Below, piece by piece: positions 12,915 through 48,779 of a stretch of 64,000 nucleotides of DNA. Numbering within the stretch: the first letter of the stretch is position 1; every line of letters starts with the position of its first letter. The notes under the pieces were generated by a model. The model ran no database searches, had not been told where the DNA came from, and saw nothing but the letters and a program-made list of their open reading frames with translations. The stretch lies in NCBI GenBank assembly GCA_965262115.1, contig OZ253496.1:1728001-1792000 (forward strand). The letters run 5' to 3'. Source of the DNA: Nitrospinales bacterium (lineage in GTDB: Bacteria; Nitrospinota; Nitrospinia; Nitrospinales; VA-1). Position numbers and translations under genes: made by a program.

Positions 12915-14159
12915 TTAGCTTGCCTGTTTTTTGTTTTCGTAAACCAACATGGGTTTTTCGCCTTTGAGGACTACTTCTTCATTAATGACCACTTCTTCCA
13001 CATCTGGCTTGGAAGGGAGGTCAAACATGATTTCCAGCATGGTCTCTTCCAGAACGGCGCGGAGCCCTCTTGCCCCGGTTTTGCGTTCGGTCGCTTTTTC
13101 GGCGATGGTGCGGATAGCCGCATCGGTGAATTTAAGTTTTGTATTTTCAAACTCAAACAATTTTTTATATTGTTTAATCAGAGCGTTCTTAGGCTCGATC
13201 AAAACTTGCACCATCGCTTCAACGGTCAACTCTTTCAACGTGGCGACGGCTGAAAAACGCCCGACAAATTCCGGAATGAGACCATATTTGAGCAGGTCTT
13301 CCGGCTGTATTTTTTCAAAAATATCCTCCTCATCAATTTCTTTTTTGGAGACGATGTCATGTCCGAAACCGAGGCTTTTTTTGCCGATACGGCCGCGAAT
13401 CAATGAGCCCAGTCCGACGAATGCCCCGCCGCAGATGAAAAGAATATTGGTGGTGTTGACCTGAAGAAATTCCTGATGCGGGTGCTTTCGGCCTCCCTGC
13501 TGGGGAACGCTGGCTGTCGTGCCCTCAATGATTTTCAAAAGCGCCTGCTGCACCCCTTCACCGGAAACATCACGGGTGATTGAGGGATTTTCTGATTTCC
13601 TGGAAATCTTATCGATTTCATCGATATAGATGATTCCGCGCTCGGCTTTTTCAACATCGTAGTCGGCGTTTTGCAGGAGTTTTAAAATGATGTTTTCAAC
13701 ATCTTCGCCGACATAACCGGCCTCGGTCAGAGTGGTCGCATCCACAATGGTGAAAGGAACATCAAGGATTCGCGCCAGAGTCTGTGCCATGAGGGTTTTC
13801 CCGGACCCGGTGGGGCCTATCAACAGCACATTACTCTTTTGCAGTTCCACATCGTCCATGTCCAAATTAGAGTCGACTCTTTTGAAATGGTTGTGGACGG
13901 CAACAGAAAGGATTTTCTTGCAGCGGTCCTGCCCGATGATATATTGGTCGAGGTGCTTGTATAAATCATGGGGTTTGAGAAGACGCTGGAAGTCTTCGCC
14001 CTTTTCCTGGGCCCACTCTTCCACCATGATTTCATTGCAAAGCTCAATACACTCGTCACAAATGTAGACGCTGGGTCCGGCAATCAGTTTTTTGACTTCT
14101 TCCTGACTTTTCCCGCAGAAAGAACAGCGGTAATTTCCGGTGGTACTCTTCTTTGCCAT
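12915..14159 (-). CDS. clpX: Clp protease ATP-binding subunit ClpX
   Basis: CSFCGK...ICDECIELC zinc finger, [22 protein letters not shown]. Confidence 0.98.
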
Positions 14160-14207: not shown

Positions 14208-14843
14208 TCAGCTTTTCTTTTTGCTCTTGTCGTCCTTCTTGACTTCTTTCCGCTCGCTGATCACGTTGTCGATGAGGCCATAAGCCTTGGCCTCGTCGCT
14301 CGTCATGTAGTGATCCCTTTCGGTATCCTTATTGACTTGGGAAACACTTTTCCCTGAGTGCTTGGCCATGATGCTATCGAGGATGGCCCGGATTCTGGTG
14401 ATTTCTTTAGCCTGAATTTCAATATCGGTGGATTGCCCCTGAAATCCTCCGCTCGGCTGGTGGATCATGATGCGTGCATGCGGCAGAGCAAACCGTTTTT
14501 TTGGAGCGCCAGCCGTAAGAAGCAGGGCTCCCATGCTAGCCGCCTGGCCGATGCAGATGGTTTGTACATCCGGCTTGATATATTGCATGGTGTCATAGAT
14601 GGCCATTCCGGAACTGACCTGGCCGCCCGGACTATTGATATAGAGATAGATATCCTGTTCGGGTTCATCCGACTCCAAAAACAGCAGCTGGGCGATGATC
14701 AAGTTAGCCAAATGATCATCAACGGCGCTTCCTATGAAAATGATTCGGTCTTTGAGAAGGCGTGAATAAATGTCATAAGACCTCTCGCCCCGACTGGTTT
14801 GTTCAACTACGATTGGTACCAACTGGCTGTAAGTTTCTGTCAT
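14208..14843 (-). CDS. clpP: Clp protease proteolytic subunit
   Basis: [25 protein letters not shown] and IMIHQP. Confidence 0.98.
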
Positions 14844-14967: not shown

Positions 14968-16329
14968 TTAATTATCAGCAATTAAATCTTTTCTGTCAAC
15001 TATTTCTTCTGTTATGGTTATTTTTTCCAGCGCGGCGTCAAGGGTTTTATCCCGTTTCATGCGACTGTGAAGGCGGGCCAGGACCCCATTTTTTTCCCAT
15101 TCCCGTTTTATCTGTTGCAGGTTGCCCCCGCCCAGCAATTGGGACATGTTTTTGACCTCCTGCTCCAACTCCTCTTCGCTGACTTGTGCATCCAGGTCGC
15201 GAGACAACTGGTCGAGAATCAATTCTTCCTGCAAGGCTTTCATGGCCGGTTCGCGATACTGATCGAGCAACTCAGGAGTCACCTCGACACCGTGTTCGTG
15301 GTCATGATCGTGGCCATGATCGTGATCGTGGCTATGGTCATGTTGGCTTTCTCTACCCTGTTTTTTTCTGGCCTGTTCGACCATGAACTTGACCTGCTCT
15401 TTCAACAGCCCTTCCGGAACATCAAACTGGTTCTGTTCGGTGATTTTTTCTGTCAGTTTCTTTTTCACCGATTTGCGGACTTCCTTACGTTCGAAATCTT
15501 CCAGTTCGGAGCGAACTTTTTGTTTCATATCATCCAGGCTCGCAAAATTCTTGTCCTCCACACTTTTGGCAAACGCATCGTCCAGGCCCGGCAGTTGTTG
15601 CTCTTGAATACTTTTCAGCACAATTTGGAAATCGACATCCTTGCCGGCGATCTCCTTATTGTGGTAATCCTCGGGAATCGGCACCGTAATGTCGCGGGTT
15701 TCGCCGATTTCCATGCCGATCAGGCCCTTGTCCAGCCCTTCAATCAATTGCCCTCCCCCTGCCTGGATGATCTGGTTCGTGGCAGACCCTCCTTCAAAGG
15801 GCTCATCGCCGAGCTTGCTGGTAAAATCTATCTTTAGTAAGTCTTTATCTCGCGCGGTGCGGTCGGTCACATCGACGTTTTTTGTTTTACGCTGGCGCAT
15901 CACTTCGATAGTTTGGTTGACATCGTCATCCGTGATGCGCGGTGTTTTCATATTCAGTTCAATGCTGGAGTAGCCCTTGAGTTCTACAGTGGGGAGCACT
16001 TCGATAGATGCGGAAACAGAGATATCGGTTCCTTCTTCGGCATTGACCTCTAAAAGATGGGGTTGGCCGACCGCTCTCAGGTCTTTTTCCACAATGGTGT
16101 TATTGAGTTCATCGCTGATCAGGTTGCTCAGGACTTCTTTTTTAACAGCCGGACCAAACTGTTTTTCCAGCAGGGCGATGGGCACTTTTCCTTTGCGGAA
16201 TCCGGGAACCTTAACCTCTCGCCCAAGTTTCTGATAATACTGCTTCAGCTTTTTGTCGTATTCCTGGTGAGGGATTTCAAACTTGATTTTTTTGTTACAG
16301 GAATCAACGTCTTCGATTTCGATTTTCAT
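14968..16329 (-). CDS. tig: Trigger factor with His-rich insertion
   Basis: PGFRKGKVP ribosome-binding motif, FKBP domain, tig-clpP-clpX-lon synteny. Confidence 0.95.
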   Translation of the reverse strand: MKIEIEDVDSCNKKIKFEIPHQEYDKKLKQYYQKLGREVKVPGFRKGKVPIALLEKQFGPAVKKEVLSNLISDELNNTIVEKDLRAVGQPHLLEVNAEEGTDISVSASIEVLPTVELKGYSSIELNMKTPRITDDDVNQTIEVMRQRKTKNVDVTDRTARDKDLLKIDFTSKLGDEPFEGGSATNQIIQAGGGQLIEGLDKGLIGMEIGETRDITVPIPEDYHNKEIAGKDVDFQIVLKSIQEQQLPGLDDAFAKSVEDKNFASLDDMKQKVRSELEDFERKEVRKSVKKKLTEKITEQNQFDVPEGLLKEQVKFMVEQARKKQGRESQHDHSHDHDHGHDHDHEHGVEVTPELLDQYREPAMKALQEELILDQLSRDLDAQVSEEELEQEVKNMSQLLGGGNLQQIKREWEKNGVLARLHSRMKRDKTLDAALEKITITEEIVDRKDLIADN

Positions 16330-16429
16330 AACTTTCCAAATATTTAAAGATTAGCGCGGAGTACCTCCGCAGGTAATTTGCAATATCTTTATCTTACCCC
16401 TTGTATGTTGTTCATAAGGGGAATTTGTA

Positions 16430-16625
16430 GTAGTTGTACCTGTGAGCCCTGTGGGAAGCCGGTTTTGTGTTTTCCACAAGGCTCACAGGGTTTGATTCAG
16501 GGCACAATAGATCGTTTACCCCTTGGGCTTTTAAGCCCGTCCCGAAGCGCAGATCGTTGTGTCCTATTTTGATTAACCCGAACAGTTGCCTGGGCCACTG
16601 AGCCCGCATCGGCAAGGCTGGGAGA
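16430..16625 (+). ncRNA. Predicted IS110 bridge RNA (5' stem-loop, target-binding loop, donor-binding loop); ends approximate
   Basis: Stem-loop 16439-16489; TTACCCCT (16516-23) / inner stem / CCCGAAG (16541-47) match the target; ACAGTTGC (16582-89) / inner stem / CAAG (16613-16) match the RE-LE junction. Confidence 0.88.
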
Positions 16626-16632
16626 CCAAATT

Positions 16633-17583
16633 ATGAATCAGAAACCCCATTTTATTGGCATCGATATTTCTAAACTCCATCTGGATGTTGCTGACAGCAT
16701 GACTCAAGAAACCTGGCAAACCGCTAACAATGAAGAAGGGATTGCTGGTTTGGTCGAGAGTTTATCCGCCTTAAATCCTCCATTGATCGTTTTGGAAGCC
16801 ACAGGCGGCTTAGAGATCCCGTTGGCTTCGGCCCTGGTTGCGGGTCGACTGCCAGTAGCCGTGGTCAACCCACGGCAAGTTCGTGATTTTGCCAAAGCCA
16901 CCGGGAAACTGGCAAAAACCGATGTCATTGATTCTCTTGTGCTGGCCCATTTTGCCAGGGCCGTACGTCCTGAGGTCAGGAAAATCAAAGACGAAGAATC
17001 TCTTGAACTCTCAGCTCTAGTGACACGCCGTCGCCAGTTGATCGAGATGCTGACCAAAGAAAAAACCCGTCTAAAACAAGCTCCAAAATGGATATGTAAA
17101 GACATTAAGGAGCATATCGAATCTCTTAAAAAACGCTTGCGAAAAATCGATGGCGACCTTTCCAGAACCATCAAAAACAGTTCTGCCTGGCGTGAGCACG
17201 ACCAGATTATACAAAGTGTTCCCGGTGCCGGTCCCGTTCTGGCTGTCAACCTCTTGGCCGGGGTTCCGGAACTTGGAGTTCTTAATCAGAAGCAAATCGC
17301 CGCCCTCATCGGTCTCGCTCCCCTCAATCGGGACAGCGGAAAGTTCCGGGGCCGCCGGTGTATCTGGGGCGGCCGCGCCAATGTGCGTGCCGCTTTATAC
17401 ATGGCCGCCGTCACTGCCATGCAGCATAATCCCGTGATTCGTACCTTTTACACACGCCTCATCGAAAAGGGCAAACCCTTTAAAGTTGCCATTACCGCAT
17501 GCATGAGAAAGTTATTAACGATCATCAATACCATGATCAAAACAAAAACACTCTGGAATGAAAATCTCATTGCCAGCACTTGA
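16633..17583 (+). CDS. IS110-family DEDD recombinase/transposase
   Basis: GIDISK, VLEATG and KTDVID (DEDD); C-terminal domain with RDSGK serine motif. Confidence 0.96.
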   Translation: MNQKPHFIGIDISKLHLDVADSMTQETWQTANNEEGIAGLVESLSALNPPLIVLEATGGLEIPLASALVAGRLPVAVVNPRQVRDFAKATGKLAKTDVIDSLVLAHFARAVRPEVRKIKDEESLELSALVTRRRQLIEMLTKEKTRLKQAPKWICKDIKEHIESLKKRLRKIDGDLSRTIKNSSAWREHDQIIQSVPGAGPVLAVNLLAGVPELGVLNQKQIAALIGLAPLNRDSGKFRGRRCIWGGRANVRAALYMAAVTAMQHNPVIRTFYTRLIEKGKPFKVAITACMRKLLTIINTMIKTKTLWNENLIAST

Positions 17584-17600
17584 CATTTAACACAGTTGCT

Positions 17601-17674
17601 TCGGGGCATGAAGTACCCGTGCCGGGCATAAAGATTAATGAAGAGGCCATCACAACCGATGAGGGGTCATAACA
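17601..17674 (-). repeat. Two nested GTGAT-hairpin mini-elements (outer copy continues at 16395-16401, split by IS110)
   Basis: Inner 17614-17654 reverse complement t-gtgatggcctcttcattaatctttatgcccggcacgggta; outer reconstructs as gttatgacccctcatcggtcttcatgccccgaaggggta. Confidence 0.82.
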
Positions 17675-17755: not shown

Positions 17756-17883
17756 GAGAGCTTTGCATAACCCAAGATTCTTCGTCACCTTGCTCCTCAG
17801 AATGACAAAATGGCCCAGTATTGTCATGCTGAGCTTGTCGAAGCATCTCGGTTCTCCGATTTTTCGACTTATGCAAAGGTCTC
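17756..17883. mobile_element. 128-bp MITE with 9-bp target-site duplication
   Basis: Ends gagagctttgcataa / ttatgcaaaggtctc; cctgccaag repeated at 17747-55 and 17884-92. Confidence 0.9.
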
Positions 17884-45782: not shown

Positions 45783-46225
45783 CGTTGTCTTTACCACCTG
45801 TATTCTCTTGCCGTAAAATTTAATACTAAATTTAAAATGACCATGACTATACCCTACAGGCGGTATATCCTTGGGATTCGGACACATTCCGCAAACAATT
45901 TTTCCAGCCTGTGTTTGATAATTTCTCCAATTCCATCCTATAAAACATCCCTGCCTCTTTAATCATCTTGCCCAGTATCACATCCTCTTAATCATCGATA
46001 ACAGGAATTGACACCCGGGATCATTCAGGGTTGAGCCGTTAGAGCATATAAAAATGAATAAACAGAAAGCGGGAGTTGAGTAGCATATTGTGGCAAGAAC
46101 TTCATAAAAAAATTCGCTGCTACCCAAAAAACAGAGAGCGTAATCATGAATTTAATGAATATATCCATTACCAATAATATGTAGTGGCTAAGATTTGATC
46201 TTCCCCTGTTTTAGTGGACAGTTAG

Positions 46226-47089
46226 TTAAGAGGCATAGGCCTGTTTCTCGAATTCGGCAGGGCTGAGATAGCCGAGATATGAGTGACGGCGTTGCCGATT
46301 ATAAAACACTTCGATATATTCAAAAATATCCTTCTTTGCTTGCTGACGGGTTTTGTAGTTCCGGTTATGAATGAGTTCCACTTTGAGAGTATGGAAAAAA
46401 CTCTCCGCCACGGCGTTATCCCAGCAATCGCCCTTCCGGCTCATACTGCACTCTATCCCATGAACATTGAGCAAGGCTTGAAAATCGTTGCAGGCATATT
46501 GAACCCCCCGGTCAGAATGGTGAATCAATCCCGGTTTCATGCCGCCGTTCTTCATTGCCATATTTAAAGCTCTCATTACCAACCAACGGGTTATCCAACG
46601 ATCCATGGCCCAACCAATAACTTTACGGTGGAATAAATCCAGCGTCACCGCAAGGTATAACCAGCCCTCTTGAGTCGGGATATAGGTGATATCCGAAACC
46701 CAGCATTGACCGGGCTCAGCAACATTAAACCGCCGTTGCAGTTTGTTTTTTGCCACCGGGTGATTATGTTTGGAATCGGTTGTCACCCTGAACTTTCTTT
46801 TGTGCTTGGCAACGATTCCATGCTCGCGCATAAGACGGGCAATACGATGCCTGCCAATGGCATATCCCTTGTCTTTCAAGTCCTCATGAATTCTGGGACT
46901 GCCATAAGTCTGGCGACTCTTCTTATAAACGGTTTTGATCTCATCAACCCATCGCTGCTTCTCACGGCTCCTCAGGCTCTCGGGGCGGCTCAGCCAGGCA
47001 TAGAACCCACTTCGTCCCACTTCCAGAACCCGGCACATCGGGCTTACCGGAAATGCTTCTCGATGATCCCGTATAAACCGATATCTCAT
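46226..47089 (-). CDS. IS3 transposase OrfB (DDE integrase core)
   Basis: [22 protein letters not shown] and DNAVAESFF. Confidence 0.92.
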
Positions 47090-47139
47090 TGGGAACCCTT
47101 CGAGTACCCCTTGTATGTTGTTCATAAGGGGAATTTGTA

Positions 47140-47335
47140 GTAGTTGTACCTGTGAGCCCTGTGGGAAGCCGGTTTTGTGTTTTCCACAAGGCTCACAGGG
47201 TTTGATTCAGGGCACAATAGATCGTTTACCCCTTGGGCTTTTAAGCCCGTCCCGAAGCGCAGATCGTTGTGTCCTATTTTGATTAACCCGAACAGTTGCC
47301 TGGGCCACTGAGCCCGCATCGGCAAGGCTGGGAGA
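47140..47335 (+). ncRNA. Predicted IS110 bridge RNA, copy 2
   Basis: Same sequence as 16430-16625. Confidence 0.88.
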
Positions 47336-47342
47336 CCAAATT

Positions 47343-48293
47343 ATGAATCAGAAACCCCATTTTATTGGCATCGATATTTCTAAACTCCATCTGGATGTTG
47401 CTGACAGCATGACTCAAGAAACCTGGCAAACCGCTAACAATGAAGAAGGGATTGCTGGTTTGGTCGAGAGTTTATCCGCCTTAAATCCTCCATTGATCGT
47501 TTTGGAAGCCACAGGCGGCTTAGAGATCCCGTTGGCTTCGGCCCTGGTTGCGGGTCGACTGCCAGTAGCCGTGGTCAACCCACGGCAAGTTCGTGATTTT
47601 GCCAAAGCCACCGGGAAACTGGCAAAAACCGATGTCATTGATTCTCTTGTGCTGGCCCATTTTGCCAGGGCCGTACGTCCTGAGGTCAGGAAAATCAAAG
47701 ACGAAGAATCTCTGGAACTCTCAGCTCTAGTGACACGCCGTCGCCAGTTGATCGAGATGCTGACCAAAGAAAAAACCCGTCTAAAACAAGCTCCAAAATG
47801 GATATGTAAAGACATTAAGGAGCATATCGAATCTCTTAAAAAACGCTTGCGAAAAATCGATGGCGACCTTTCCAGAACCATCAAAAACAGTTCTGCCTGG
47901 CGTGAGCACGACCAGATCATACAAAGTGTTCCCGGTGCCGGTCCCGTTCTGGCTGTCAACCTCTTGGCCGGGGTTCCGGAACTTGGAGTTCTTAATCAGA
48001 AGCAAATCGCCGCCCTCATCGGTCTCGCTCCCCTCAATCGGGACAGCGGAAAGTTCCGGGGCCGCCGGTGTATCTGGGGCGGCCGCGCCAATGTGCGTGC
48101 CGCTTTATACATGGCCGCCGTCACTGCCATGCAGCATAATCCCGTGATTCGTACCTTTTACACACGCCTCATCGAAAAGGGCAAACCCTTTAAAGTTGCC
48201 ATTACCGCATGCATGAGAAAGTTATTAACGATCATCAATACCATGATCAAAACAAAAACACTCTGGAATGAAAATCTCATTGCCAGCACTTGA
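47343..48293 (+). CDS. IS110-family DEDD recombinase/transposase
   Basis: Protein identical to 16633-17583. Confidence 0.96.
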   Translation: MNQKPHFIGIDISKLHLDVADSMTQETWQTANNEEGIAGLVESLSALNPPLIVLEATGGLEIPLASALVAGRLPVAVVNPRQVRDFAKATGKLAKTDVIDSLVLAHFARAVRPEVRKIKDEESLELSALVTRRRQLIEMLTKEKTRLKQAPKWICKDIKEHIESLKKRLRKIDGDLSRTIKNSSAWREHDQIIQSVPGAGPVLAVNLLAGVPELGVLNQKQIAALIGLAPLNRDSGKFRGRRCIWGGRANVRAALYMAAVTAMQHNPVIRTFYTRLIEKGKPFKVAITACMRKLLTIINTMIKTKTLWNENLIAST

Positions 48294-48310
48294 CATTTAA
48301 CACAGTTGCT

Positions 48311-48344
48311 TCGGGGCATGAAAGCCAATGAAGAGGACATCACA
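48311..48344 (-). repeat. GTGAT-hairpin mini-element split by IS110 (rest at 47105-47111)
   Basis: Reconstructs as t-gtgatgtcctcttcattggctttcatgccccgaaggggta. Confidence 0.88.
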
Positions 48345-48619
48345 AAGATAACTGTCGCCTTTTTTAATATGTCCCGCTCCATACGAAGGCGAGCGTTTTC
48401 TCGCCGCAACTGCTGCAACTCATCTCCCGGCTTAAGCTGTCCTTTGCCGGGAAACGCATTCCCCTGATCCTCCTCATACTCCTGTTTCCAGCGACCCAGA
48501 AGGGCAGAACGGATTCCCAGATCCCGGGACACCCGGGCAATGCTATCGCCTACTTCAATAACCAATCGAACCGCTTCTAACTTGAATTCTTTACTGAAAC
48601 TCCTGCGTTTGGTTCCCAT
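48345..48619 (-). pseudogene. IS3 transposase OrfA with interrupted 3' end
   Basis: RRSFSKEFKLEAV HTH and LRRENARLRMERDILKKA with an A6G slippery site. Confidence 0.88.
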
Positions 48620-48779
48620 AAAAACACCTCCAAAAGTGTATTATCCACACTTTTCGATGTGTCCACCAATTCAGGGGAAGATCAGTTGGATTATGGATCG
48701 TCAAAGACAATCCACACCACCCCCCTCATGAGAGGGGAGGATCAATGAGAATCTCGACTTATGCAAAGGTCTCCTCGGC

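Follow-up and report, generated by a model that had tools for sequence, protein, structure and literature searches.

The window analysed here is a 64,000-nucleotide stretch from a Nitrospinales bacterium and lies in a single-contig genome of 2.68 Mb (G000) that is 93.9% complete. It holds an element of the IS110 family with a single recombinase gene, framed by the two halves of a short hairpin repeat, and a second, nearly identical copy that sits in the same kind of repeat within an IS3-family element (Table 1). As the preliminary description of this DNA had recorded, each copy has TACCC-CT at its left junction and CT-TCGGGG at its right one. The first copy is inserted 70 nt upstream of a trigger factor gene (14968-16329, assigned by Pfam) on the opposite strand, and the genes that follow it, also on the opposite strand, resemble clpP (14208-14843) and clpX (12915-14159) by their translations.

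Table 1. Features of the IS110 locus and of the second copy in the window (window positions)
Feature	Position	Strand	Remarks
IS110 element	16400-17600		CT at 16400-01 to CT at 17599-600; 1.2 kb; one 316-aa gene
Left target TACCC	16395-16399	+	initial five bases of the host hairpin repeat
Left CT core	16400-16401	+	duplicated on insertion
Right donor TGTAT, subterminal repeat arm GTT (3 nt), predicted -10 box (16404-09)	16402-16409	+	by the IS621 rules in the available part of PMC11208160
Long 5' stem-loop of the predicted bridge RNA	16438-16490	+	-35.7 kcal/mol; different or missing in homologues
Predicted target-binding loop module	16499-16565	+	closing stem 16499-513/16552-565, inner hairpin 16525-38
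Invariant bases of the target-binding module	A16509, G16514, A16534, G16539	+	from the alignment
Predicted left target guide with CT core, TTACCCCT	16516-16523	+	
Predicted right target guide CCCGAAG (16541-47) and handshake guide (16548-49)	16541-16549	+	
Predicted donor-binding loop module	16577-16622	+	inner hairpin 16592-605, handshake guide 16617-18
Predicted left donor guide ACAGTTGC	16582-89	+	in the donor-binding loop
Predicted split right donor guide	16608-16616	+	includes CAAG 16613-16
IS110 recombinase, 316 aa	16633-17583	+	
Short right end	17580-17598	+	TTGACA -35 box 17580-85 overlapping the stop codon; arm AAC 17589-91; left donor ACAGTTG 17592-98
Right CT core	17599-17600	+	
Right target and remaining host repeat	17601-17674	+	host-repeat parts 17601-13 and 17655-74
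Nested second 41-nt repeat unit	17614-54		interrupts the host repeat
Second copy of the IS110 element	47110-48310	+	99.8% identical; intact gene 47343-48293
IS3-family element	46196-48684	-	41-nt repeat and second IS110 copy at its orfA/orfB junction

The 316-aa protein matched the Pfam families DEDD_Tnp_IS110 and Transposase_20 and the NCBIfam IS110 equivalog NF033542 (226.8 bits against a cut-off of 140). A search of the PDB returned two distinct sequences only, those of ISCro4 and IS621, with E values of 1e-30 to 1e-33. Residues D11, E55, D97, D100 and S235 aligned with D11, E60, D102, D105 and S241 of IS621, the five catalytic residues listed in the available part of PMC11208158. With the gene intact, the family assignments in place and the catalytic residues aligned, the compact recombinase of the preliminary description was borne out. 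At least 2,976 proteins among 8,000 scored matched at E <= 1e-100, showing that the clade is common, and a plasmid search yielded distant IS110 proteins only (2,906 of 2,907 records below 60%). The left end of 231 nt and the right end of 15 nt correspond to the layout of the IS110 group and not to that of IS1111, and the full copies end in the short duplicated CT core without terminal inverted repeats. Judged from these sequence characters, none of the defining traits of the IS110 group that could be tested was missing.

The stem, the guides, the inner hairpins and the CCCGAAG and CAAG strings quoted in the preliminary description were all found where it had placed them. The left end was predicted to fold at -85.6 kcal/mol (z -3.4; 0/200 shuffles as good), to which the long 5' hairpin contributed much. 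Folding of the single sequence to minimum energy partly closed both guide loops, and the open-loop form was therefore taken from an alignment and from IS621. The alignment comprised 30 of 38 candidate left ends, near-duplicates and three long-loop cyanobacterial sequences having been excluded. Scaffold pairs were kept in 94.2% of 778 cells over the 30 sequences, as compared with 33-46% when the scaffold was slid, and 12 of the 26 scaffold pairs had changes on both sides. The covariation score was 0.356 versus 0.180 (0/500 shuffles, a control that ignores kinship), and RNAalifold recovered the same four helices. Structural support was strong for the target module and weak for the donor module, whose helices are nearly invariant and hence carry little covariation. 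The covariation analysis across homologues that had been recommended at the outset agreed with the proposed structure.

The four A and four G bases given as conserved in bridge RNA in section 7 of PMC11208158, in the part of that paper available, all had invariant counterparts here (16509, 16514, 16534, 16539, 16575, 16580, 16601 and 16606). Measured from the invariant G, the left target guide would be 8 nt long, one fewer than in IS621. The right donor guide had the same pattern as in IS621: two bases that pair, two that are flipped, a G-T pair and CAAG. The match of CAAG to the circle junction, noted beforehand, was confirmed as far as the tetranucleotide is concerned; the actual right donor guide is predicted to be longer and split. 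The 5' hairpin is real in this element and variable among homologues. The position-by-position match, the 30 aligned sequences and the predicted RNA all agree with the IS621-type layout that had been recognised (5' stem-loop, target loop, donor loop); to it can be added the split form of the right donor guide, the handshake guides and a predicted promoter at the circle junction. Scanning the linear left end for promoters gave nothing, which is what one would expect of a promoter assembled only when the ends are joined, and Rfam gave no match above a gathering score on the left end. The 3' strand of the donor-loop stem (16620-16626) overlaps the likely ribosome-binding site of the recombinase, which could couple folding to translation.

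When the circle joint was rebuilt in silico, TTGACA and TATGTT stood 17 bases apart by sequence match. Of 16 junction types, 14 had the -35 box at this distance, and 8 had a perfect 3-nt subterminal repeat (AAC/GTT in the present element), as opposed to 3.7 after shuffling (218/20,000). Both the junction promoter and the subterminal repeat are described for bridge elements in the accessible text of PMC11208160. The donor guides of the element matched its joined ends exactly or by wobble. Among homologues, guide and donor changed together in a few types (ACGGTTG, ACAGCTG and ACAGTTA) and disagreed in others, among them L094, L097 and L105.

By blastn, 29 pieces of the element were found in the genome: 21 full copies at >=98.5% identity, one near-full copy, two full copies at 87% and five fragments. 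The copies were inspected for targets unrelated to their guides, an outcome that the preliminary description had named as evidence against guiding. All 26 right junctions fitted the guide of their own subtype: 23 read CT-TCGGGGC, one the same minus a base, and two CT-GCGGGGC. On the left, 22 of 26 junctions read TACCC-CT, three had one-base slips or mismatches and one was an internal duplication; 25 of the 26 corresponded to ACCC-CT or a one-base slip of it. Every main-type right junction (24/24) lay in the TTC-loop form of the hairpin repeat. Free hairpins in the same genome carried A in 42, G in 39, C in 30 and T in 28 cases after the core (n=139), so that the main type uses only the least common loop form. 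The right flanks of the 24 T junctions were grouped by eye into 11 groups, giving a chance of about 3e-7 if the insertions were independent and all forms equally open, and about 2e-5 with 8 groups instead. In the two 87% copies, C replaces A at the position corresponding to 16545, and both occupy TGC-loop sites. These two copies have 227 nt of right flank in common, are mosaics and have broken genes, and we therefore count their guide switch as one event, weak when taken alone. At 2144617-2145980 of the genome, 166 nt from the start of the left end, comprising the 5' hairpin and the target loop, occur twice in tandem, with an internal CT at the foot of the target-loop stem as the point of joining. 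At 2519310-2519438, two left-end fragments lie head to head via the 5' hairpin, each keeping its left target.

The relation between guide and site was followed further in 110 homologue loci, 103 of them with a protein match. Fifteen lacked a 5' end or a donor-loop anchor and 88 were parsed; removal of loci from the own genome, of same-place repeats and of loci without a parsed target loop or junction left 42, which represent 22 distinct guide pairs, poor scorers retained. Over these 22 pairs, guides and sites matched at 8.86 of 12 non-core bases, as against 4.45 +/- 0.39 after shuffling (0/20,000). The signal resided in left positions 3-7, the five non-core bases next to the core, and in all five right positions; left guide positions 1 and 2 did not track the sites (0.18 and 0.27 versus 0.21 and 0.29 shuffled). 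In four of the 22 pairs one arm had at most two matching bases, and a fifth pair had 2/5. The donor-loop handshake base could pair with target position 7 in 19 of the 22 and with donor position 7 in one, a pairing that favours strand exchange according to the available part of PMC11208158. Pairing of the target loop's handshake base with donor position 7 occurs in all 22, which was not counted because both positions hardly vary. In the relative G016, whose guide predicts C after the core, the five junctions had T (three), C (one) and G (one), so that the prediction held in one of five; a G-T wobble accounts for the three T junctions and not for the G. Locus L153, with a guide identical to that of G016, has a C site as predicted (1/1). 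Several homologues (L002, L031, L004-L006, L013, L038 and L104-L110) seem by eye to be aimed at other dispersed palindromic repeats, with sites of the kind AATCCCC-CT-CACCC, GTCAT-type CT-GAGC and ACCCAAC-CT; a GTCAT-type repeat also occurs in the window near 17820-17850.

We regard it as very probable that the left end gives rise to a bridge RNA of the IS621 type that guides the recombinase to TACCC-CT-TCGGG in the 39-41-nt repeat. Because the predicted guide matches the exact insertion spot of the copies, the element likely works like the known RNA-guided IS110 recombinases. By analogy to IS621, rare excision would join the ends at the CT core into a circle; a preprint (bioRxiv 10.64898/2026.08.31.748434, available part) argues for a single-stranded circle, which bears on cut-out versus copy-out excision. 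The -35 and -10 boxes brought together at the joint may act as a sigma-70-type promoter for the RNA and the recombinase. The first loop is predicted to read five bases of the bottom strand to the left of the core and five of the top strand to its right, and the second loop to read the element's own joint. A recombinase tetramer (D11/E55/D97/D100 plus S235) would then cut after CT, and the handshake bases would help the strand swap, leaving CT at both ends, as in IS621; the available text of PMC13626964 was also drawn upon for this mechanism. The variable middle base of the hairpin loop, the first after the core, corresponds to one guide base, and the main type accordingly occupies only one of the four loop variants. 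Later spread probably also occurred by hitch-hiking in IS3 and by recombination between copies.

The repeat unit runs from TACCC to ATCAC plus one purine, and 145 of the 149 complete units counted are 38-40 nt long before this final purine. A hairpin with a G-N-A triloop terminates its bottom strand. An RNA-guided element could require this hairpin, or the flanking repeat body, as a second signal, like the structure gate that is reported for ISPpu10 in the part of bioRxiv 10.64898/2026.03.19.712850 available. Such a requirement would add to the RNA guide and not replace it; we hold it to be rather unlikely. The target's bottom strand does form the triloop hairpin, and all 28 free perfect 12-base targets in the genome fall within the repeat, so that sequence and structure are inseparable there. 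In G016, however, three of the five right junctions match the guide and do not continue into the repeat. Rebuilt homologue sites folded better than shuffles in 24 of 37 cases, with a mean of -5.5 versus -4.2 kcal/mol. Moreover, the ISPpu10 stem is placed 5' and pairs with the left target, as far as the same preprint is available, whereas here the core straddles stem and loop and the hairpin would conceal bases read by the guide.

The copies might also be a relic of a few founding insertions, most of them having arisen by hitch-hiking in IS3, by recombination or gene conversion, or by assembly mixing. Ten of the 21 full copies touch an IS3, so that the copy number overstates independent insertions, and six of the 21 have one 10-bp deletion in common. 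At least three copies (at 1811279, 1296052 and 2013360) adjoin an IS3 on a single side, and haplotypes are mosaic, which together point to recombination between copies or mixing in the assembly. No circle or empty-site joint was among the nine joints listed for four of seven sequencing runs, a weak indication since rare forms drop out of contigs. Conversely, 15 of the 21 full main-type copies encode the full protein, at >=99% identity, and the distinct flanks number 19 on the right and 18 on the left. The same rule of guide and site governs homologues of other phyla. In the relative G015, where the guide was not found, 12 of the 19 right junctions were examined and all 12 were in different flanks (T after the core in ten, C in two). 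We thus consider a mere relic improbable. As for the IS3 itself, the genome has 17 orfB copies, and every IS3 copy seen has the 41-nt repeat at its orfA/orfB junction; by our reading, this insert shifts orfB out of the usual -1 frame. No other full IS3 orfB was found in this genome, and matching target duplications were not evident around the IS3 copies.

An empty counterpart without duplication was present in the genome for 42 of the 149 repeat units; the count covers tandem and nested cases as well and has no control by shuffling. The IS3 orthologues of G016 and G003 lack exactly the 41 nt at the orfA/orfB junction. As judged from these sequence comparisons, the target repeat is mobile, in line with what the preliminary description had supposed. 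It is intergenic: only 16 of 139 hairpins lie in long open frames, which cover 72% of the genome. It also nests in itself, in the window at 17614-17654 and throughout the genome, often at a few fixed places; one of these is two bases from the IS110 cut site, and insertion there can regenerate a target.

One may ask whether the IS110 recombinase moves the repeat as well, forming a two-part system. Y1 HUH transposases and TnpB had 0 matches each in the 93.9%-complete genome, with positive controls, and the occasional insertion of the repeat beside the cut site in its own hairpin would fit such a partnership; Y2_Tnp likewise gave 0 matches, though its controls were silent too. Not one of 146 units, however, has CT at both ends, no common core is seen, and the filled/empty pairs show no duplication. 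In addition, the repeat matches 20 of 22 other genomes of the genus (about two of them perhaps by IS3 only) and the recombinase 4 of 22, where incomplete short-read bins such as G015 lose repeats. IS110 was hence rejected as the mover, and the two-part system appears very improbable. That the left end resembles the target by chance or by capture of target DNA, with the protein alone choosing the site, can practically be dismissed, since the right guide is a reverse complement, occupies a constant place in the scaffold and varies together with the site in different phyla.

Starting from the bridge RNA reading, a wider idea can be put forward tentatively, with a probability short of even. Nitrospina IS110s may follow the 40-nt mobile element through changes of a single guide base that match the N of the G-N-A loop, thereby dividing up its variants, cutting its likely recognition hairpin and riding it into IS3. 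A guide with A would then be restricted to the T-loop and one with C to the G-loop, and G would accept both C and T by wobble. If true, this would document, in nature, how an RNA-guided parasite partitions the variants of another mobile element.

Thousands of IS110 bridge elements have been published, and IS110s in palindromic repeats are a classic case. The present element resembles IS621 of E. coli and ISCro4/IS622 (PMC11208160 and PMC11208158, available parts; PDB 8wt6 and 9t56) in its two-domain recombinase of the DEDD-plus-serine type. According to the same sources, it has in common with these elements a long left end that comprises a 5' hairpin, a target loop and a donor loop, as well as the CT core and the right donor bases C8-T9-T10-G11-T12-A13-T14. 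The split right donor guide with its G-T pair, the handshake guides, the predicted junction promoter and the 3-nt subterminal repeat are likewise shared, as is a target within a palindromic repeat. In contrast to IS621, the protein is distant and shorter (316 versus 326 aa), and the shorter left target guide reads five non-core bases. The right guide reads five bases here and two in IS621, donor positions 6-7 are TG and not AT, the 5' hairpin is longer and variable, and the target is a 39-41-nt Nitrospina-type repeat instead of the E. coli REP. Similar elements are ISPpu10 and ISPpu9 in Pseudomonas putida, multi-copy IS110s that occupy a CT core within palindromic repeats scattered through intergenic regions and that are tied to rearrangements between copies (bioRxiv 10.64898/2026.03.19.712850, available part).

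REP/REPIN repeats moved by RAYT and the palindromic mini-elements derived from IS200/IS605 form the comparison class for the target repeat. Like these, it is short, intergenic, hairpin-ended, self-nesting and free of duplication; unlike them, it comes without a Y1 transposase or TnpB match in the 94%-complete genome and as a fixed 39-41-nt unit with a G-N-A triloop. In the available portions of the covariation set of Durrant et al. 2024 (PMC11208160), supplement files 4 and 5 contain the word formed by left donor and core 490 and 985 times, and rows with this donor-loop scaffold are visible. The readable parts of these supplements gave 0 matches to 'Nitrospina', and the target word occurs a single time in files 4 and 5, between different flanks. 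The claim of a new natural guide thus held for the searchable part of the published supplement files. A search of the openly accessible literature found no account of this element or this repeat.

The element is a clean but ordinary new example that leaves the known mechanism unchanged and belongs to a large clade partly represented in published data. A screen of 72 orthologues, 18 of them active, has been reported (bioRxiv 10.1101/2025.05.14.653916, available part; its supplements could include a close relative), so that another orthologue is useful but unsurprising. As a compact and distant orthologue with an unusually well documented natural specificity, it is a candidate ready for an orthologue screen and links bridge recombinases to a 40-nt mobile repeat. 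Particular to this case are the clean single-base choice among four loop variants and the three-level nesting of IS110 in repeat in IS3. The main-type junctions, all in one of the four loop variants, provide a natural read-out of single-base discrimination after the core, and the relatives one of the tolerance for G-T wobble.

A minor observation concerned the sole notable Rfam match, which was to sX15 on the minus strand (16486-16642; 35.4 bits against a gathering score of 55) and which was also seen in 2 of 12 homologue loci. The gene start at the Xanthomonas sX15 locus (L300:1879-2037, NC_007507) gave no match by tblastn or Pfam; read as the reverse complement, the locus shows both loops, target and donor, and after them this decayed-looking start of an IS110 gene. 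The available part of PMC3300014 reports an RNA confirmed by northern blot, asX7, which covers the target loop on the bridge strand of the sX15 locus, as well as 10 homologues in one Stenotrophomonas chromosome. Since the reverse complement reads as both loops and asX7 covers the target loop, the Rfam family sX15 is probably antisense to an IS110 bridge RNA.
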